Shown here: positions 16,462 through 43,144 of the stretch, one piece after another | How positions within the stretch are numbered: the stretch's first letter is position 1 | Layout: every line of letters begins with the position of its first letter | Notes under the pieces: generated by a model | The model's input: the letters and a program-made list of their open reading frames with translations, nothing else | Told to the model about the DNA's origin: nothing | The model's database searches: none | Program-made: the position numbers and the translations under genes | Assembly (NCBI GenBank): GCA_004195025.1 | Contig: SGBB01000004.1 | Span: 53,478-117,477, forward strand | DNA: 64,000 nucleotides | DNA from: Candidatus Acididesulfobacter diazotrophicus | Lineage (GTDB): Bacteria; SZUA-79; Acidulodesulfobacterales; Acidulodesulfobacteraceae | Direction: 5' to 3'

Positions 16462-17247
16462 TCAACAAAATAATTTATGATTATATTTGATTGAATATAA
16501 AAAAAGACCTTCTGGAGGAGCTTTAGTAATGTTTGAGGGAGTTTTGCCTTTATTAAGCAAATAATTTATATTCTCAATATTAATTTTACCTAATCCGCAA
16601 AGAACAATCGCTCCAATAATTCTTCTTACCATATGTCTTAAAAAACCCTCGCCTTCAATATAAATATTGAATCCATAATTTTTTTTTTGAATATTAATTT
16701 TAATTACCGTTCTAAAATAATCTTCAATATCTCTTTTTTTATCTGATTTTGCAAAATTTACGAAGTTATAATTTCCTATAAACATTTTAGAAGCTTCTTT
16801 CATTAAATCAAGATTAAGGCTATCTTTGATATACCATGAATATTTAGATAGCAGAGCGCTTTTAAATCCGTTATTTAATTTATAAAGATATGTTTTAGAA
16901 ATAGTATTAAAAGTTGCATGGAAAGAATCATGAACAATTTCTATACTTTTAACTGTAATATCATTGGAGGGTAAAACTCCGTTCAAGCTTGATTTTAATT
17001 TATGCAAATCAAGTAAAAAAGGTAATTTAAAATTAGCTACCTGATTTAATGCATGAACTCCCGCATCTGTTCTGCCTGAAACAAATAGCTCAATATCTAT
17101 TCCGGTTATTTTTTTAATCGCTTTTAAAAGTTCACCTGATATTGTTTTTAATTCTATTTTGCCAATTTCCGCAGCAAAATTATTTTGGATCTGCCATCCG
17201 TGATAATTTGACCCGTCATATTCTATAACTATAAGATAATTGATCAT
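16462..17247 (-). CDS. truA: tRNA pseudouridine(38-40) synthase TruA
   Basis: Catalytic motif SGRTDAGVHALNQV and N-terminal IEYDGSNYHGWQ. Confidence 0.9.
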   Translation of the reverse strand: MINYLIVIEYDGSNYHGWQIQNNFAAEIGKIELKTISGELLKAIKKITGIDIELFVSGRTDAGVHALNQVANFKLPFLLDLHKLKSSLNGVLPSNDITVKSIEIVHDSFHATFNTISKTYLYKLNNGFKSALLSKYSWYIKDSLNLDLMKEASKMFIGNYNFVNFAKSDKKRDIEDYFRTVIKINIQKKNYGFNIYIEGEGFLRHMVRRIIGAIVLCGLGKINIENINYLLNKGKTPSNITKAPPEGLFLYSIKYNHKLFC

Positions 17248-18773
17248 TTTCTGTTAACAATTTTAGAAATTATATATCTTAGAGATCTCAAAGACAATCC
17301 AAGTTCGCTTGCCAGCAGTTTTTTAGGCTGCCGTTTGTTTTCAATTCTATCAATAACGATATTGCTTTCAATATCACTTATAAATCTTTCTAAACTTATT
17401 TTATTTTTTATATTAATTTCATTAAATATAAAAATAATTTTTTTTAAAATATCTTCATATGCAGCGGTATTTATATCGGAAATAATATCATTATAATTTG
17501 AATTTTTTCTTAGGGTATCCGGAAGGCAATTTTCTGTTATATCCTCTGATTTACAATATATACATGCTCTTTCTATAATATTTTCTAACTCGCGAACATT
17601 TCCCGGATAATCATAATCAGCTAAAATAGAAACCGCATCTTGACCAACCGAATAAATTTTTTTATTATGTTCTTTAGAATAATTATTAATAAAATGTGAC
17701 ACTAGTAACGGAATATCCTCTTTATGTTTTCTTAAAGGAGGCATTTCAATATGAATAGCGTTAAGTCTAAAAAATAAATCTTCTCTAAATTTGCCCTGCC
17801 TTATTAACTCATTTAAATCTTTATTTGTTGCGGCAATAAATCTTATATCTAAAACATATTCTTTATTGGAACCAAGCTTTCTAAAGGTTTTTTCCTGTAA
17901 AACCCTTAAGAGTTTTACTTGAACAGGCATAGGCAGATCGCCTATTTCGTCAAGAAACAGCGTTCCTTTGTTTGCATATTCTAAAATACCTTTTTTATCA
18001 TAATTTGCGCCGGTAAAGGCTCCTTTAAGATAACCAAAAAGCTCACTTTCTATAAGATTTTCAGGAATTGCGGACAAATTTACCGGAACAAATTCGCCGC
18101 CGTTTTTACCGTTGGATAAATTATTAAAATATATATCATGGGAAAGCTTAGCCGCAAGTTCTTTTCCTGTACCTGATTCTCCTGTTATAAGCATTGTAGT
18201 AAAGCTTTTGGCAAAAATATTTATTTCATCTATAACTTTAGCTATTATAGCGGAATTTCCTATTATATTGCCTCGTAATTTGTCTTTATTGGCTAATTTA
18301 TTTTTTAAATTATTGAGTTCGTCATATATGGAAAAATAATCTATAGCTTTTTTTATCGTTATTTTGAATTCTTCCGTATCAAAAGGCTTTATAAGATAAT
18401 CAAATGCTCCGTCTTTTAAAGCGTTTACGGCAGTTTTTACATCGGAGTATGCCGTCATAAGTATTACCGGCAACTGATGATTTGTATGAGTATAATTTGT
18501 ATTTTTAAAATACTTTATCTTAAATTGACGAAGAAAATCAATACCGCTTATATCCGGCATTGAAATATCGGATATGATCAGATTAAATCCGTTATCTTTA
18601 TTATTGTCATTATTGTCGTCAATAATTTTTAAAGCTTCTCCTGCAGATAATAAAGCCGTAACTTCATATCCTTCATATTTTAAAAGTATTCCTAAAGAAT
18701 CTAAAACAGATTTTTCATCATCTATAATAAGGATTTTTTTACTGTTCTTCATCTTCATGTCCATTGTATTCAT
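17244..18773 (-). CDS. pilR: Sigma54-dependent response regulator (REC + AAA+ + Fis-type HTH), PilR-like by synteny
   Basis: It has a receiver domain (ILIIDDE...DISMPDISG), Walker A GESGTGKE, the sigma54-contact loop GAFTGA, and a C-terminal HTH. It lies downstream of a histidine kinase and pilC. Its stop overlaps the truA start (ATGA). Confidence 0.7.
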   Translation of the reverse strand: MNTMDMKMKNSKKILIIDDEKSVLDSLGILLKYEGYEVTALLSAGEALKIIDDNNDNNKDNGFNLIISDISMPDISGIDFLRQFKIKYFKNTNYTHTNHQLPVILMTAYSDVKTAVNALKDGAFDYLIKPFDTEEFKITIKKAIDYFSIYDELNNLKNKLANKDKLRGNIIGNSAIIAKVIDEINIFAKSFTTMLITGESGTGKELAAKLSHDIYFNNLSNGKNGGEFVPVNLSAIPENLIESELFGYLKGAFTGANYDKKGILEYANKGTLFLDEIGDLPMPVQVKLLRVLQEKTFRKLGSNKEYVLDIRFIAATNKDLNELIRQGKFREDLFFRLNAIHIEMPPLRKHKEDIPLLVSHFINNYSKEHNKKIYSVGQDAVSILADYDYPGNVRELENIIERACIYCKSEDITENCLPDTLRKNSNYNDIISDINTAAYEDILKKIIFIFNEINIKNKISLERFISDIESNIVIDRIENKRQPKKLLASELGLSLRSLRYIISKIVNRK

Positions 18774-20556
18774 ATAACGGTAATTTAATATTGATTAATG
18801 TGCCTTTATTCTTTTTACTTTTTATACTAATATTTCCGTTAAAATTATCTAAAATAGATTTGACTATTGAAAGACCGAGTCCAGTACCGTTTTTTTTTGT
18901 GGTAAAAAGAGGCTTAAATATATTTTTAATAATATCTTCGCCTATACCTTCTCCATTGTCATAAAATTTCACAATTAAGCAATTATTAACTTTATTTTGT
19001 TCAATTAAAAAATCTCCTGAAATTTTTATAGAACTTATTCTGATTTTGCCCCTTTTATTATTACCGCAATTTTTATATCTTGATTTAATAGAAGCTGCTG
19101 CATTTTCAATTATGTTCACAAATATCTGCTGTAAACGGTATTTTTCAAAAAATATATTTATTTTGCCGTCAATTCTATTTTCTATATTATAATCTTCCGA
19201 TGATTTAAATTGAGAAATTATGTATTCTGAAAAATCATAAAGATTAAAATATTCAAAATTCACGGAATTATCTATTATATTAATATTAAAAGTTTTAGTT
19301 TTAGTATTGACAAAACCAAGAAAATCTTTTACAAGAGACTCAAGCCTTATAGTTTCTGCTTTTATGATTCCCGTCAATTTATTAAAATCGTCACCGCTAA
19401 TTTTCACGTCTTCAGCAAATTTTCTATTTTCAGAATTTAAAATATCTATAGAGGTATTAATTGCAGAGAGGGGGTTCCTTATTTCATGCGCAAGCCAGCC
19501 TGCTAATTTTCCGGTAGCAATTAATCCTTCATTTATTTTTGCGTCAAGCTCCAATTCTTTTACGTATGATATATCTCTAAAAAGCAGAATATGCCAACCG
19601 GAATTGTTATTCTCTTTAAACTTAGAATAAGAAAAACCGATAATGCTTCCGTTATGTTTAACTTCAAAACGAACATTGTTGATTTTTTCATCCTCAAAAA
19701 TATTCAGCGGAAAATCTTTAAAAATATCGTCTATTCTTAAATTGAAATAATAGAATGTACCTGCTTTGCCTGTCAGGGACTCTTTAAATATCCCTGCTCC
19801 AACCAAATCCATTCCAGATCTATTTACGAATACAATATCATTTTTATCATTTAAAACTATAACTCCCTGCGTGAAACTATTAATAAGTTCTTTATTAAAT
19901 ATTGCGGCATTTTTCATTACCTCGTCTATTTCTATCACTTTATTACTTAAATATTTTATGTTTTTAGAAAATTTATATAAAATCCAGCCGAATATTAATA
20001 AACCTAAAATATTTAAACTTAAAGCAAATAACAATTTATCAGGATTATATAAATAATAATAATGATCTGGAACATTAAAATAAAACTGCAAGTCGGCAAT
20101 AAAACCAATAGTTAAAGAAGAGGCAACGGTAAAAAAAATAATCCCTGCGCCTAAAAAAATAAATCCGGCTATTAAAATTAATAAATAATATAAAAGGATA
20201 AGATTGCTTCCTAATCCTCCGTTTAAAATTACAAAAGCCGATATTAATATAAAATCAAAGATAAGCTGTATTAATCCAAATAAACTAAAATATCTTTCTT
20301 TTTTCTTTTTTCTAATATAATAATTTATAAGTGAGTATAAAACAGTAAGAAAAAGAGCGATGAATAAAAAAATAAAAATTTCAACTTCAGTATAAATAAA
20401 CAGGCTTGAATTATGCTTAATTAAGATAATCAGGTAGGTTAAAACAGCTAAAGAAATTGCAGTAAATCTAAAAACTATAATAAATTTTAATTTTTCATAA
20501 ATATTATCTCCTTCAATATTAAAATTCAAGTTCAGGCTTTTATGTGCCATATGCAA
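18739..20556 (-). CDS. pilS: Membrane sensor histidine kinase, PilS-like by synteny
   Basis: About six N-terminal TM segments, H-box HEIRNPLSAI, and an ATPase region with GTGLGLSIVKSILDNFNG. It sits between pilC and the NtrC-type regulator. Confidence 0.65.
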   Translation of the reverse strand: MHMAHKSLNLNFNIEGDNIYEKLKFIIVFRFTAISLAVLTYLIILIKHNSSLFIYTEVEIFIFLFIALFLTVLYSLINYYIRKKKKERYFSLFGLIQLIFDFILISAFVILNGGLGSNLILLYYLLILIAGFIFLGAGIIFFTVASSLTIGFIADLQFYFNVPDHYYYLYNPDKLLFALSLNILGLLIFGWILYKFSKNIKYLSNKVIEIDEVMKNAAIFNKELINSFTQGVIVLNDKNDIVFVNRSGMDLVGAGIFKESLTGKAGTFYYFNLRIDDIFKDFPLNIFEDEKINNVRFEVKHNGSIIGFSYSKFKENNNSGWHILLFRDISYVKELELDAKINEGLIATGKLAGWLAHEIRNPLSAINTSIDILNSENRKFAEDVKISGDDFNKLTGIIKAETIRLESLVKDFLGFVNTKTKTFNINIIDNSVNFEYFNLYDFSEYIISQFKSSEDYNIENRIDGKINIFFEKYRLQQIFVNIIENAAASIKSRYKNCGNNKRGKIRISSIKISGDFLIEQNKVNNCLIVKFYDNGEGIGEDIIKNIFKPLFTTKKNGTGLGLSIVKSILDNFNGNISIKSKKNKGTLINIKLPLYEYNGHEDEEQ

Positions 20557-20744: not shown

Positions 20745-21971
20745 CTATCCTTTAATTGCTTTTCCAAGATTAAATATGGGCAAATACATAGCTACAACCA
20801 AAACACCGACAACAATTCCAAGAAAAACTATAAGAGCAGGTTCCATCATTGAAGTCAAATTAGTTACCGCATTGTCAACTTCCTCGTCATAATAATCGGC
20901 AACTTTAGCTAACATAGCATCAAGATTACCTGTTTTTTCTCCAACCATTATCATTTGAACAACAAGGGGAGGAAAAAGTCCTGTTTTATTAATTGCAACT
21001 GAAAGGGGGGCACCTGAAGCTACATCTTCTTTTGTTTTAATTAAAGACTCTTCTATAATTTTATTTCCGCTTATTTTAGATACAATACCGAGAGCCGCTA
21101 AAATAGGAACACCGCTTTCAACCATTGTTGAAAGTGTCCTGGAAAATCTGGCAATAGAAACTTTTTTCAGCAATAATCCTATTAACGGCAATTTAAGAAT
21201 TAAACGGTCTATATTTCGTCTTCCGTTTTCCCTTTTATAATATGACTTAAGTAAGAAAACTGCAATGCCTATGGCAATAATTATATAAAGTATATACGAC
21301 CTGACAAAATCGCTGAAATTAATGACATCCTGCGTAAGACCCGGCAGTTTTGCGCCTACGCTGGCAAAAAGATTTGCAAATACAGGGATAACAAATGTCA
21401 ATAATATTACGATAACTGCAAATGCAACCGACAATACTATCGTCGGATATATCATTGCACCTTTCACTTTTCTTTTAAGTTTAAGAGTTTTTTCAAAATA
21501 TACGGATAATCTCTTAAAAACTTTATCTAAAACACCGCCCTTTTCCCCCGCATCAACAAGATTTATATACAAATCATTAAATACACGCGGAAATTTTTTC
21601 AAACTATCGGATAAACTTCCTCCGCTTTCTATGTTTTCTTTAATTTTTGATAAAATGCCTTTTAAATTTTTATTTTTTTGCTGATCTATCATTATGGATA
21701 AACCTTGCAAAATAGGGACGCCCGAATCTACTAATGAAGAAAACTGCCTTGTAAATACTATTAAATCGTTGTCGCTTATTTTAGTCTTTGGACTTACTTC
21801 CTTTGAAGCAGTTAGCCGTAAACTTAAGAATTCACTTTTCTTATCAACATTTATAGGATAAATATTATTCTTATGAAGTTCATCAATAACAATTTCAGGA
21901 CTTACGGCATCAATTTGACCCGTAATATATTCTCCTGTTTTTTTTCTGCCTTTCCATTGATAAACAGGCAT
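20745..21971 (-). CDS. pilC: Type IV pilus platform protein PilC (GspF family)
   Basis: 408 aa with two T2SSF repeats and three TM segments. The N-terminus reads MPVYQWKGRKKTGE, typical of PilC. Confidence 0.9.
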   Translation of the reverse strand: MPVYQWKGRKKTGEYITGQIDAVSPEIVIDELHKNNIYPINVDKKSEFLSLRLTASKEVSPKTKISDNDLIVFTRQFSSLVDSGVPILQGLSIMIDQQKNKNLKGILSKIKENIESGGSLSDSLKKFPRVFNDLYINLVDAGEKGGVLDKVFKRLSVYFEKTLKLKRKVKGAMIYPTIVLSVAFAVIVILLTFVIPVFANLFASVGAKLPGLTQDVINFSDFVRSYILYIIIAIGIAVFLLKSYYKRENGRRNIDRLILKLPLIGLLLKKVSIARFSRTLSTMVESGVPILAALGIVSKISGNKIIEESLIKTKEDVASGAPLSVAINKTGLFPPLVVQMIMVGEKTGNLDAMLAKVADYYDEEVDNAVTNLTSMMEPALIVFLGIVVGVLVVAMYLPIFNLGKAIKG

Positions 21972-22053
21972 AAAATTAACCTCTTAATAATTTTATATTA
22001 TATTTATATTATAATATAACATATTATAATTATACAATCAATTAATATCACCG

Positions 22054-22286
22054 CCCTAAAATTGCCGATAGAAAATTTTATACTGGATGACCGCTTAGCT
22101 CTCGGATTATAGCCTCGTGAACAGAAACGGCGTGCGTTTCTACTATCGGAACTTTCCCGCTGAAGCGGGTTGGGACTTTGAGAAGATTTATCGTTTCACC
22201 CGTCGGGTTTCATTCCTGCACAGGCACTAATCCTGTATTCTTAATACATTGCAGTATATTTAGCAATCTTTATCGGCAATTTTGGG
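22054..22286. mobile_element. 233-bp GC-rich MITE-like/structured element with 18-nt terminal inverted repeats, inserted between pilT and pilC
   Basis: The ends are CCCTAAAATTGCCGATAG (22054-) and TATCGGCAATTTTGGG (-22286). The interior has perfect hairpins at 22123-22141 and 22156-22169. Its end and core are shared with the 43029-43144 copy in the opposite orientation. Confidence 0.6.
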
Positions 22287-22292
22287 ACAGTA

Positions 22293-23513
22293 TTACAATT
22301 TATCAAAATCAATTCCTGAAAATAACCCGTCATTTTTTTTATTTGAGTCGCCGTTTTGCTGCTGTATTCCCGGTGTTCCAATCTTATTTGCATTTGAAGA
22401 CATATTATTGTTTAAAGAACCGCCTTTAGAAATCAATCCTGAATTTATATTTTGTTTTAATTCATCTATATCTGAAGAACGCGAGTATGCTTCTGCTTCA
22501 CTTATTATTCTATTATTTACTAATGAAGCAAGCGCCTGATTTAACGTTTGCATGCCGTATTTTTCCTGCCCCAATTGGAGCTGGGAATATATTTGATGTA
22601 TTTTATTTTCACGAATAAGATTCCTTATGGCAGCATTAGGAATCATAACTTCTGCCGCCAATATCCTGCCGCGGTCATCTATTTTAGGAATAAGAGTTTG
22701 AGACATGACTCCTACTAATGATAATGATAATGACGACCTAATCTGAGATTGCTGATCGGAAGGAAATATATCTATTATTCTTGAAATAGTTTGCACTGCC
22801 GAATTGGTATGCAGAGTTCCAAACGTCAAGTGTCCAGTCTCCGCAATGGTTAATGCAGCCTCCATGGTTTCCATGTCTCGTATTTCGCCTATTAGAACTA
22901 CATCGGGATCTTCTCTTAATATATGCCTTAAACTTTCTAAAAAACTATAAGAATCCTGACCTACTTCTCTCTGATTAACTAAACATGATTTATGCTGAAA
23001 AATATATTCTATAGGATCCTCAATAGTAATGATATGTTCATGTCTTGTTGCGTTTATAGAATCTATCATAGCGGCTAAAGAGGTAGTTTTGCCAGAACCT
23101 GTAGGACCTGTGACTAATATTAAACCTCTTGGCGATTTGATAATTTCTTTTATTATAGGGGGCAAACCTAGTGCATCTATTGAAGGTATCTCATGCGGAA
23201 TAACTCTGAAAGCTCCTGCCACCGAACCTCTGTCAAAATATAGATTGCCTCTGAAACGGGATACCCCTTTCTGTGAAAATGAAAAATCAAGTTCATGAGT
23301 TTCTTCAAATTTTTTCTTTTGGGCATCCGTTATAACGCTATAGCATAAACCTTGGGTATCGGAAGGCGGCAAAGGCGGAAAATTAAGCGGAGCAAGCGAG
23401 CCTTTAAGTCTAATAACCGGAGGTGAACCCGCTGCTATATGCAAATCTGATGCTCCCATATCCACGGTAGTTTTTAATAAATCAGCTATAGAAGGCATTC
23501 CATGTATCCTCAA
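22293..23513 (-). CDS. pilT: Type IV pilus retraction ATPase PilT, with about 50-aa low-complexity C-terminal tail
   Basis: Walker A GPTGSGKTTSLAAM, and GHLTFGTLHTNSA (the PilT AIRNLIRE region is present as AAIRNLIRENK). Confidence 0.9.
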   Translation of the reverse strand: MRIHGMPSIADLLKTTVDMGASDLHIAAGSPPVIRLKGSLAPLNFPPLPPSDTQGLCYSVITDAQKKKFEETHELDFSFSQKGVSRFRGNLYFDRGSVAGAFRVIPHEIPSIDALGLPPIIKEIIKSPRGLILVTGPTGSGKTTSLAAMIDSINATRHEHIITIEDPIEYIFQHKSCLVNQREVGQDSYSFLESLRHILREDPDVVLIGEIRDMETMEAALTIAETGHLTFGTLHTNSAVQTISRIIDIFPSDQQSQIRSSLSLSLVGVMSQTLIPKIDDRGRILAAEVMIPNAAIRNLIRENKIHQIYSQLQLGQEKYGMQTLNQALASLVNNRIISEAEAYSRSSDIDELKQNINSGLISKGGSLNNNMSSNANKIGTPGIQQQNGDSNKKNDGLFSGIDFDKL

Positions 23514-23636: not shown

Positions 23637-25466
23637 TCATATAATTATATTATTATTATTTGTTTTAAGATATTGCAATATTTCCTCAAGAGAAGTTATG
23701 CCTGAAATAAATTTCTCTTTTGCCGATTCGCTTAAAGTAATCATTTTATGATTTTTAACGGCTAAATTTTCAATTTCAAATTCATTAGCATTTTTATAAA
23801 TTAAATCTTTAATATCATCGGTTACGGTAAGCACTTCGTATATTGCGATTCTGCCTTTGTATCCTGTATTCATACAAGCGGAACATCCTTTAGGCTTATA
23901 AAATAAATTGCGAGAAACGTTGCTGTCTTCAAATCCGAAACCTTTTAGAAGTATATTGTCAGGTTTATAAGGTTCTTTGCATTCATTACATAATTTTCTT
24001 ATAAGTCTTTGTGCTATTATAAGATTAAGACTGGACGCCACAAGAAATGACTCCACTCCGACATTAATTAAACGGGAAATAGTTGATGCAGCATTATTTG
24101 TATGAATCGTTGAAAGAACTAAATGTCCCGTCAAAGCGGCTTTAATAGCAATTTCTGCGGTTTCAAGGTCCCTTATTTCGCCTACCATAATTATGTCAGG
24201 ATCCTGCCTTAAAAAAGAACGCAGCGCTGCAGCAAATGTTAAACCTATATCTTCGTTAATTTGAACCTGATTAATACCGTAAATATTATATTCTACAGGA
24301 TCTTCCGCTGTAGAAATATTTACTGATTTTGCGTTTAAATCGCTTAATGCGCTGTATAAAGTAGTTGTTTTGCCTGAGCCTGTAGGACCTGTGACAAGTA
24401 TCATGCCGTATGGTTTATGTATAGCGCTCTGAAAATCATTCAATTGATTTTCAGAAAATCCTAATTTACCCATATCAAGCTGAAGGGAAGATTTATCTAG
24501 TATTCTCATTACAATTTTCTCTCCGTACAGTATAGGGAGACACGATACTCTAATATCTACTTCTTTATTCTCCACTTTAACTTTTATCCTTCCGTCTTGA
24601 GGCATTCGTCTTTCTGCTATGTCCATCTGAGACATAATTTTAATTCTTGAACTTATTGCATTTTTTAATTGTCCCGGAACCGTCATAATTTCATTTAATT
24701 TTCCGTCTATCCTGAATCTCACTCTTATATTGTTTTCGTAAGGTTCAAAGTGTAAGTCGCTTGCGCCTCTTCTGATCCCGTCAGCTAAAACCTTATTAAC
24801 AAATTGGATGATAGGTTTTTCTGAGGAAGATTTTTGCATCTCTGAAATATCAATTTTTTCATTGGTATCTTCAATAGAAATAGAATCTATATAATCTTTG
24901 TGGTCCGTCAAAATAGTAGAAGCATTGTAATATGAAGATAAAGCTTGATTTATTTCAGATTCGGAGGCAAGCACTACTTCAACATTAAGTCCTGTATAAA
25001 ACTTAATGTCTTCAAGAACGGTCACTTTTGTAGGATCGGAAACTGCCAGATATAAAGTATTGCCTTGGCGTTTATATGGAACAACGCGATATTTTAAAGC
25101 AGTGTCAGGAGGAATCAGTTTGATAACATCTGAAGGTATTTCAGAAGAAAGAAGATTAATAGTCGCTGCGCCAAATTCTTTTGATAAAAATGAAACAAGT
25201 TCGGAATCTTTAACAAACCCAAGTTTTGACAGCTGTTTGCCGATGCTGCCGCCTGATAGTTCCTGCTCTTCAAGTGCCTGTTTTAATTGGCTTGCAGTAA
25301 TTATATCATTTTTTACAAGTATTTCTCCCAGCTTAATATCTTGTAATTGCTGACCTTTTTTTAATCCGTTTCTTATCTTTTCCTGTATCAATAAAGCATT
25401 ATTTACATCATCTTTCTTTATTGCACCATGTTTTATTAAAATTTCGCCAAGTTTTTGAGATTCCAT
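23637..25466 (-). CDS. pilB: Type IV pilus assembly ATPase PilB (GspE family)
   Basis: Duplicated N-terminal GspE_N-type segments (LGEILIKHGAI..., LGEILVKNDII...), Walker A GPTGSGKTTTLYS, and a tetracysteine cluster CNECK...CSAC. Confidence 0.9.
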   Translation of the reverse strand: MESQKLGEILIKHGAIKKDDVNNALLIQEKIRNGLKKGQQLQDIKLGEILVKNDIITASQLKQALEEQELSGGSIGKQLSKLGFVKDSELVSFLSKEFGAATINLLSSEIPSDVIKLIPPDTALKYRVVPYKRQGNTLYLAVSDPTKVTVLEDIKFYTGLNVEVVLASESEINQALSSYYNASTILTDHKDYIDSISIEDTNEKIDISEMQKSSSEKPIIQFVNKVLADGIRRGASDLHFEPYENNIRVRFRIDGKLNEIMTVPGQLKNAISSRIKIMSQMDIAERRMPQDGRIKVKVENKEVDIRVSCLPILYGEKIVMRILDKSSLQLDMGKLGFSENQLNDFQSAIHKPYGMILVTGPTGSGKTTTLYSALSDLNAKSVNISTAEDPVEYNIYGINQVQINEDIGLTFAAALRSFLRQDPDIIMVGEIRDLETAEIAIKAALTGHLVLSTIHTNNAASTISRLINVGVESFLVASSLNLIIAQRLIRKLCNECKEPYKPDNILLKGFGFEDSNVSRNLFYKPKGCSACMNTGYKGRIAIYEVLTVTDDIKDLIYKNANEFEIENLAVKNHKMITLSESAKEKFISGITSLEEILQYLKTNNNNIII

Positions 25467-28348: not shown

Positions 28349-28508
28349 TTAATCCTGCGATAGTAAATAATTACTTCTGTATTCCAGCTTTCGCGGAATG
28401 ACTTAGCAAAGATTTAAATTTCTCACTTCAGGTGTTATTCCAGCGAAAGCGGGAATACAGTGTTATTTAGCGTTAAAATATCTAAAACATATTTTAACGC
28501 AGGATTAA
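28349..28508. repeat. 160-bp nested palindromic intergenic element built from two inverted GT(C/T)ATTCC-N9/10-GGAATACAG units
   Basis: Outer arms are ttaatcctgcg (28349-28359) / cgcaggattaa (28498-28508). Inner units are ctgtattccagctttcgcggaatgac (28377-28402) and gttattccagcgaaagcgggaatacag (28434-28460). There is an extra hairpin at 28472-28498. Confidence 0.7.
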
Positions 28509-42642: not shown

Positions 42643-43028
42643 TATATTTATTATATTTATATTTAATATTTATATTTATTTGTATCTATATATGATATGT
42701 AATGCTATGTAATGCGTAATAAAAAATTATAACCGTTATAAAATTGCAAGCAAAACATTATTTATTTTTATCTATAATAATCCTGTATGAAATAAAGCAA
42801 TTTGTAATGTAATTTGCAATTAAATAATTAAAATTAAATTAAATTAAATTAAATATTAATATTCTATCATACATAATTAAAATATTTATAAATAATTATT
42901 CCAAATTAAGCTTAATTTGGTTATAATGAATCAGTATAATAAAAATCACTAATAATTAAAAGAATTAAATGATATCCTTAAATTACCGACAGAGATTATT
43001 AAATATACCGTAATGCATTAATAATATA

Positions 43029-43144
43029 GGATTAATGTATTCGCAGGAATGACACTAAAACTAAACAGGTGAACTTTTAAAATCCCTCAAAGTCGTTCCT
43101 GCACAGTAGTGAATCCAGAATAAATTTTCTATCGGCAATTTTGG
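43029..43144. repeat. About 116-bp palindromic intergenic element, same family as the 22054-22286 and 28349-28508 copies
   Basis: It contains cgcaggaatgac (rc gtcattcctgcg), the unit gtcgttcctgcacagtagtgaatccag, and the terminal ttctatcggcaattttgg. Its last 34 nt match the reverse complement of 22054-22090 at roughly 88% by hand alignment. Confidence 0.6.

Follow-up and report, generated by a model that had tools for sequence, protein, structure and literature searches.

The insert between pilT and pilC of Candidatus Acididesulfobacter AP1 very probably belongs to an apparently undescribed MITE family with IS1380-type ends

Introduction

Candidatus Acididesulfobacter AP1 is an acid-mine-drainage MAG (PMC6776010), and mobile elements are not mentioned in the two genomic papers on its lineage (PMC6776010, PMC12506266). 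We analysed a 64-kb window of this genome (C4:53478-117477 of the host assembly, here labelled G000); "the window" refers to this whole stretch of DNA, and positions given without a contig are positions within it. In the window, a GC-rich and hairpin-rich island separates pilT from pilC. A first-pass annotation left two readings of it: a non-autonomous mobile element that had landed inside the pilus operon, or a structured RNA that could decouple the expression of pilC from that of pilB and pilT. Here we ask which of these the island is. Our results point to a real, apparently undescribed family of non-autonomous DNA transposons (MITEs), and the insert appears to be ordinary selfish DNA rather than a new regulatory RNA.

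Results

The G000 assembly has 2,459,539 bp in 47 contigs, with a GC content of 29.9%. Pfam searches confirmed the genes on both sides of the island (Table 1), and the spacer between pilT and pilC, re-measured at 321 bp, is indeed mostly filled by the element. The element lies 6 nt past the pilT stop codon (22293-22295, minus strand), the position of which is the same in relatives, and both pilT and pilC are unbroken. Throughout, the plus orientation of the element is that of the family model, while transcription of the pil genes proceeds from the other strand.

The first-pass annotation had described a 233-bp element at 22054-22286 bounded by 18-nt terminal inverted repeats. The repeats are present, but base 22054 is part of the left target duplication. 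As this duplication has decayed in G000 to ACCGC/ACAGT, with three of five positions still matching, the element proper is 22055-22286. Over 20 nt, its left inverted repeat does not differ from an end of an IS1380-family insertion sequence at locus L102. The element was rightly called a GC island (43.3% GC), and the three perfect hairpins that had been noticed were found again at 22123-22141, 22156-22169 and 22198-22208. An ORF scan yielded only spurious overlapping frames. Nearly all family members have the core in common, which contains a CCCGC-N4-GCGGG hairpin, the sequence GACTTTG, a CACCC-N3-GGGT hairpin and a degenerate ATTCCTGC-N4-GCAGGAAT hairpin; compensatory changes are present in its stems. 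The core hairpin at 22202-22221 has the family consensus ATTCCTGCGAAAGCAGGAAT, and one frame of it reads as a VIPAKAGI-like translation. It also fits the ATTCCC-N8-GGGAAT pattern of the Neisseria dRS3 repeats, a likeness that might reflect a relationship across phyla.

Table 1. Features of the pil locus and family copies in the window
Feature	Position	Strand	Remarks
Sigma-54 activator	17244-18773	minus	Pfam Sigma54_activat, Response_reg
Histidine kinase	18739-20556	minus	Pfam HATPase_c, HisKA
pilC, T2SSF platform protein	20745-21971	minus	Pfam T2SSF, E = 7.8e-69
AT-rich pilC leader	21972-22049	minus	78 nt; sigma-70-like matches; outside the MITE
Left target duplication	22050-22054	.	decayed to ACCGC
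Complete long-form MITE copy	22055-22286	+	232 bp; nhmmer model positions 2-235, 219 bits
Left terminal inverted repeat	22055-22075	+	CCTAAAATTGCCGATAGAAAA; family consensus CCCAAAATTGCCGATAGAAAA
66-nt accessory hairpin module	22089-22154	+	includes the AGAAACG/CGTTTCT hairpin; marks the long versus the ~160-bp short form
Core common to nearly all family members	22155-22235	+	model positions 104-190, in ~225 of 277 nhmmer hits
Right terminal inverted repeat	22268-22286	+	CTTTATCGGCAATTTTGGG
Right target duplication	22287-22291	.	decayed to ACAGT; 1 nt before the pilT stop codon
pilT-like ATPase	22293-23513	minus	Pfam T2SSE, E = 3e-48; gene unaltered by the insertion
pilB	23637-25466	minus	Pfam T2SSE and MshEN
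Partial, core-only copy	28382-28471	+	nhmmer model positions 104-196, 49 bits
Second copy, short form	42975-43144	minus	degenerate left end; nhmmer 42977-43104; repeat match ending at 43142

The window contains three copies of the family (Table 1). A cross-match of the pil-site island to an element in the opposite orientation, previously placed at 43029-43144, is real by both nhmmer and repeat matching, but that element extends over about 42975-43144. The pil-site copy had also been credited with about 90 extra nucleotides; the additional material is instead the discrete 66-nt module at 22089-22154.

We searched the whole assembly for the family with blastn and with a profile built from 19 full-length copies; the alignments of the element comprise 19-24 full-length copies. 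The 277 nhmmer hits merged into 182 loci that cover 23.4 kb in total, or about 1% of the genome. Further copies thus occur far above chance; they are spread over most contigs, and 180 of the 182 loci are intergenic. By size, the copies group at about 160 bp (the short form), at 211-217 bp and at 228-235 bp (the long form), the last being the short form plus the 66-nt module, which short-form copies lack. The ends of the family are sharply marked by a conserved inverted repeat of 18-20 nt, CCCAAAATTGCCGATAGAAA, and its complement. With one mismatch at most, the repeat core AAAATTGCCGATAG occurs 124 times in G000, compared to four times for a reversed-pattern control. It is also frequent in G006 (113), G007 (183), G014 (61) and G015 (78), with reversed-pattern controls at 1-12. 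Such strong enrichment in only some genomes of the family indicates lineage-specific bursts. A second dispersed repeat of about 157 bp was observed to the left of the G000 copy at C12 55525-55689. It has dozens of copies with 80-92% identity and is abundant in G002 (AP2-like), G006 and G007; the MITE family is not abundant in G002.

Transposition was visible at the ends of the copies. A perfect 5-bp target duplication flanks 19 of the 45 complete copies, compared to 1.4% of mismatched pairs, in which left and right flanks were taken from different copies. When a match at four or more positions was accepted, these values were 27 of 45 and 9.4%. Of the bases in the perfect duplications, 93% are A or T. 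Only 1-3 of 234 bases separate five of the copies from one another, which marks a very recent burst. In addition, the joined flanks of 16 copies were searched in the sister genomes, which gave unbroken matches across the junction with 85-98% identity. Empty sites with one copy of the target were found for C7:34213 (TTTATC, in G006), C11:35956 (ATTTA, in G007) and C3:97679, and the flanks of the precise empty sites are 91-98% identical in G006 and G007. C16:50032 is a candidate further case, for which the search gave an unbroken G006 match to the joined flanks. Insertion polymorphism is therefore present at the pil site, as described below, and at other loci.

The pil site itself is occupied in G000, G006 and G007. 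G006 (96% nucleotide identity) carries the same long element, and in G007 (93%) the very same position is taken by a family member between perfect ACCGT/ACCGT flanks, so that the orthologue has all five positions of the duplication. The element is missing from this site in five genomes of the same genus (G001-G005). Of these, G001, G002, G003 and G005 have a short spacer, with a single GCCGT in G001 and G003, and the spacer of G004 (equivalent to L001) holds unrelated sequence, about 85 nt long. A decayed MITE copy in the L001 spacer was considered and rejected; it is better read as the unrelated insert of about 85 nt seen in G004. In other genera (L002-L007) the pilT-pilC spacer is just 12-25 nt. 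The first-pass annotation had allowed that the spacer might prove to be ordinary sequence conserved in all relatives, whereas the insert is present or absent by genome. The insertion would date back to the ancestor shared by G000, G006 and G007. The pil-site copy is about 80% identical to the young subfamily and has a decayed duplication, which suggests that it is now old.

Three structural variants occur at this single site with the same ACCGT duplication (G007 is represented by L091, G006 by L090 and L097). The long form is found in G000 and on contig C155 of G006, and a short form without the 66-nt module on contig C82 of G006; in G007 the occupant is 196 bp long, belongs to another subfamily and has its interior inverted. 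Replacement, gene conversion and repeated insertion are candidate explanations. A simple inversion between the repeats was rejected for the G007 variant: the interiors are about 72-82% alike over short stretches, and the lengths are 196 and 232 bp. The G006 assembly breaks inside the pil-site element on two contigs, and on C82 (L097, 100-140) a type-C inverted-repeat end, TTTTCTATCGCAGGATTAAAA, lies 10 nt from the MITE (for end types see below). Together, these breaks and the type-C end suggest strain heterogeneity or nested insertions in this 3.0-Mb MAG.

A 5-bp duplication and ends starting with CC point to the IS1380 family, which ISfinder describes as elements of about 1.55-2.0 kb with one ORF, CC ends and a duplication of 4-5 bp. 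The IS1380-family insertion sequences that we found are 1,617-1,636 bp long, with one ORF of about 416-425 aa and ends of the form CCC..., CCT... or CTT.... Type-A insertion sequences are present in G037, G040 and G043, which belong to another genus of the same family. They measure 1,625-1,633 bp and encode proteins of 424-425 aa that score 228, 217 and 210.5 bits against NCBIfam NF033539 (IS1380; cut-off 180 bits). One of their ends reads CCCAAA[A/T]TTGCCGATAGAAA and the opposite end CTATAATTTGCCGATAGAAA, and homology between the insertion-sequence copies stops exactly at these ends. Between the end of the L102 insertion sequence and the MITE inverted repeat, 20 of 20 positions agree. Type-B insertion sequences, with ends CCTTAA[A/C]TCACCGTTAGAAA, were found in G006 and G017; in the two G006 copies the ORF is broken by a single TGA. 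A variant-end MITE subfamily in G000 (CCTTAAATCACCGTTAGAAA) has ends identical to type-B and the same interior as the main family.

G000 itself contains one intact IS1380-family transposase, which was picked up with NF033539 and is encoded by a type-C insertion sequence of 1,617 bp (C21:33000-34616; L082). This protein of 420 aa is 27-29% identical to the type-A transposases, and the element has 18-bp inverted repeats (CTTTAATCCTTCCATAGA) and a TTTTA duplication; its ends are unlike those of the abundant MITE. A cognate type-A or type-B insertion sequence was not found in G000, where blastn returned only low-complexity AT-rich matches. Likewise, pairs of inverted repeats 0.5-3.5 kb apart in G000 enclose no transposase, only ordinary genes. 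A cognate autonomous element thus does exist, but outside the G000 assembly. The recent burst in G000 may be explained by an insertion sequence left unbinned, by cross-mobilisation or by loss. IS1380-family transposases do act on imperfect surrogate ends (PMC9330008). Since the MITE shares just 20-25 nt or so of its ends with the insertion sequences and nothing else, it is not a simple deletion derivative of them.

All the data make it very likely that the insert is a non-autonomous DNA transposon whose family uses IS1380-family terminal inverted repeats. The first of the two readings in the first-pass annotation, a MITE that landed in the operon, is borne out by the repeats, the 5-bp duplication, the many copies, the empty sites and the cognate insertion sequences. 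We infer that mobilisation occurs in trans. An IS1380-type DDE transposase would bind the ends of about 20 bp and insert the element into mostly AT-rich pentamers, 5 bp being duplicated. At the pil site, the copy would have landed just downstream of the pilT stop codon and upstream of an AT-rich pilC leader that already existed.

Could the insert nevertheless act on the pilus genes as RNA? An exapted cis-acting role is compatible with a MITE origin. With the inverted repeats paired over 18 bp and the internal hairpins folded, read-through transcripts would form a long duplex that is cut by RNase III or at which polymerase or exonucleases stall. The 3′ end of pilT mRNA would thereby become structured, pilC would rely on its own promoter, and the effect would be measurable. 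In line with this, the predicted fold of the minus-strand transcript, in which the inverted repeats pair, has -68.6 kcal/mol (z = -4.3), the site is still occupied in three diverged genomes, and promoter-like sites lie just downstream of the element and ahead of pilC (minus strand, 22051->22023 with 10 of 12 matches and 22041->22013 with 9 of 12 and a TG). Related precedents are Correia elements, the inverted repeats of which are RNase III cleavage sites, and ERIC, which alters mRNA stability (PMC10969869). An intrinsic terminator was rejected, however: within 21800-22500 a single terminator-like site was found, on the plus strand, and none on the transcribed minus strand. Family copies also show no bias in orientation, 21 being co-oriented with transcription and 25 opposed in co-directional gene gaps. 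Moreover, G000, G006 and G007 have occupants of differing form and orientation, which means that the site does not conserve any one RNA.

The leader also speaks against such a role. Where the insert is absent, spacers within the genus already measure about 100-120 nt and contain a conserved, AT-rich and promoter-like pilC leader, which has 86-89% identity in G001-G005, empty-site genomes included. Because leader and long spacer exist without the insert, any decoupling of pilC probably predates the insertion. Overall, we consider an exapted RNA unlikely. The MITE most likely sits in a tolerated slot, with the internal pilC promoter and the long spacer older than the insertion, and we infer that the pil-site copy is nearly neutral for pilus expression. 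As a separate observation, the whole genus has a conserved and extremely AT-rich leader of about 75 nt with sigma-70-like boxes, compared to the 12-25 nt between pilT and pilC in other genera. By this comparison, pilC has probably gained its own promoter in this genus.

Elements with type-B and type-C ends likewise contain the 66-nt module and the ATTCCYGC-N4-GCRGGAAT hairpins, and the hairpin-rich interior is a mosaic of palindromic cassettes common to sister MITE families with other IS1380-type ends. In G000, the module was seen in elements bounded by CTTTAATCCTTCCATAGA or CCTTAAATCACCGTTAGAAA at C6:87638-87717, C6:88371-88452, C22:33780-33861 and C20:33140-33221. The cassettes might be selected cargo, for example a site for a host factor or transposase accessory or an mRNA-end structure, or they might be swapped in situ by the transposase at an occupied site. 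This idea arises because the module and the hairpins are present in at least three IS1380-type end classes, and because three different family members occupy a single insertion point across sister genomes. We regard it as improbable; gene conversion among copies is the simplest reading of the mosaic, itself a candidate only.

The second reading in the first-pass annotation was a family that encodes or behaves as a structured RNA, with copies kept for that RNA as a non-coding gene or riboswitch-like regulator. Both strands of the element fold far better than shuffled sequences (z = -4.3 and -5.4), and the hairpins are maintained. In the stems, 83% of cells are paired, compared to 34-47% with slid partners, and there are 17 double-change pairs against 8-12 in the slid controls. 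The covariation proposed earlier as a check is therefore partly there: compensatory changes keep the hairpins in four stems (columns 77/88, 78/87, 141/150 and 207/216), for example with a switch from CG to UA in 8 of 20 copies. It is not strand-specific, however. Among the derived mismatches, 63 cells are G:T and 71 are A:C, about equally many, and because an RNA fold would favour G:U, the pairing constraint is symmetric. Palindromy is thus a property of the family at the level of DNA, or of both strands, and the covariation between the two inverted repeats reflects recognition by the transposase, not RNA pairing.

Rfam covariance models gave no support either. Nothing reached the gathering score, neither for the spacer, searched at E up to 10, nor for the 4.3-kb locus, searched at gathering thresholds; the best matches had E values of 3.5-9 and 10-14 bits. 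This agrees with the earlier statement that no known riboswitch or RNA family could be matched. Moreover, the copies lie in either orientation relative to neighbouring genes, the target duplications and empty sites show that they arise by transposition, and about 180 copies are beyond what a regulator needs. A structured-RNA family is therefore very unlikely, and this part of the first-pass annotation is not supported.

Finally, a REP/REPIN-type element moved by a RAYT (a Y1 tyrosine transposase) can practically be dismissed: the interior does consist of REP-like palindromic units (ATTCCYGC-N4-GCRGGAAT) and G000 encodes a 238-aa Y1_Tnp-like protein (C36:3166-3882), but REPINs lack the insertion-sequence-type inverted repeats and target duplications that the pil-site family has, the Y1 gene is flanked by AT-rich tandem repeats instead of palindromic units, and the MITE ends match IS1380-family insertion sequences. 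The tandem repeats around the C36 gene, which is Y1_Tnp/RAYT-like, are long and lie on both sides; TATTATCTATA and AATAAATAAT are examples of their units, and we saw no link to the MITE.

Discussion

A MITE family with IS1380-type ends very probably accounts for the island between pilT and pilC, for about 1% of the Ca. Acididesulfobacter AP1 genome and for many odd "structured" intergenic islands in it. For annotators this means that such GC-rich hairpin islands should not be labelled as riboswitches or sRNAs. The family also serves as a sign that transposons have been active very recently in this uncultured lineage from acid mine drainage. At one operon junction it provides a natural series (empty, long, short and other subfamily) in which effects on co-transcribed genes can be tested.

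In its features, the family agrees with MITEs as a class: it is non-coding and small, within the range of about 50-500 bp, has inverted repeats and a duplication of fixed length, occurs as dispersed copies with empty sites, and has a matching autonomous element. A 2024 review of MITEs lists none for the IS1380 family, and the name "IS1380" occurs 0 times in it (PMC10969869). Our results add a 5-bp-duplicating family to the IS1380-type MITEs. With the IS1380 family (IS1380, ISEcp1, ISPme1; NF033539) the link is that autonomous elements with the same end encode proteins above the cut-off. Those insertion sequences are about 1.6 kb long with one ORF, repeats of about 18-22 bp starting with CC and a 5-bp duplication. 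The MITE, on the other hand, is 160-235 bp long and non-coding, has about 20-25 nt of its ends in common with them, and its cognate insertion sequence is missing from G000.

Chunjie, a MITE in Geobacter uraniireducens, is similar in its size of about 235 bp, its size variants (178-235 bp) and its partial copies, and its deltaproteobacterium-like host; this likeness is by description, not by sequence. Chunjie differs, on the other hand, in having another parent insertion sequence and another target duplication. Chunjie has tens of copies, one of them in an operon that was not destroyed by it (Chen et al. 2008, summarised in PMC10969869). In G000 the copy number is higher, at about 182.

Among the other known families, BOX elements of pneumococci have neither insertion-sequence-type inverted repeats nor a target duplication, and TIMEs have 38-bp Tn3-type ends, which start with GGGG; the pil-site family differs from both. 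What it has in common with BOX and the Tn3-derived TIMEs (PMC4133298) is that modules are gained, lost and shuffled, the same cassettes being found inside pil-site family elements with different ends.

Correia (NEMIS) elements of Neisseria and ERIC of enterobacteria are likewise small, bounded by inverted repeats and able to fold into hairpins. The pil-site family has different ends and a different target; Correia duplicates TA. Both Correia and ERIC are often co-transcribed with their neighbours, and the duplex of their inverted repeats in mRNA is a substrate of RNase III or RNase E (PMC10969869). By this analogy, they would be the best model for any effect that the insert may have on pilT/pilC mRNA.
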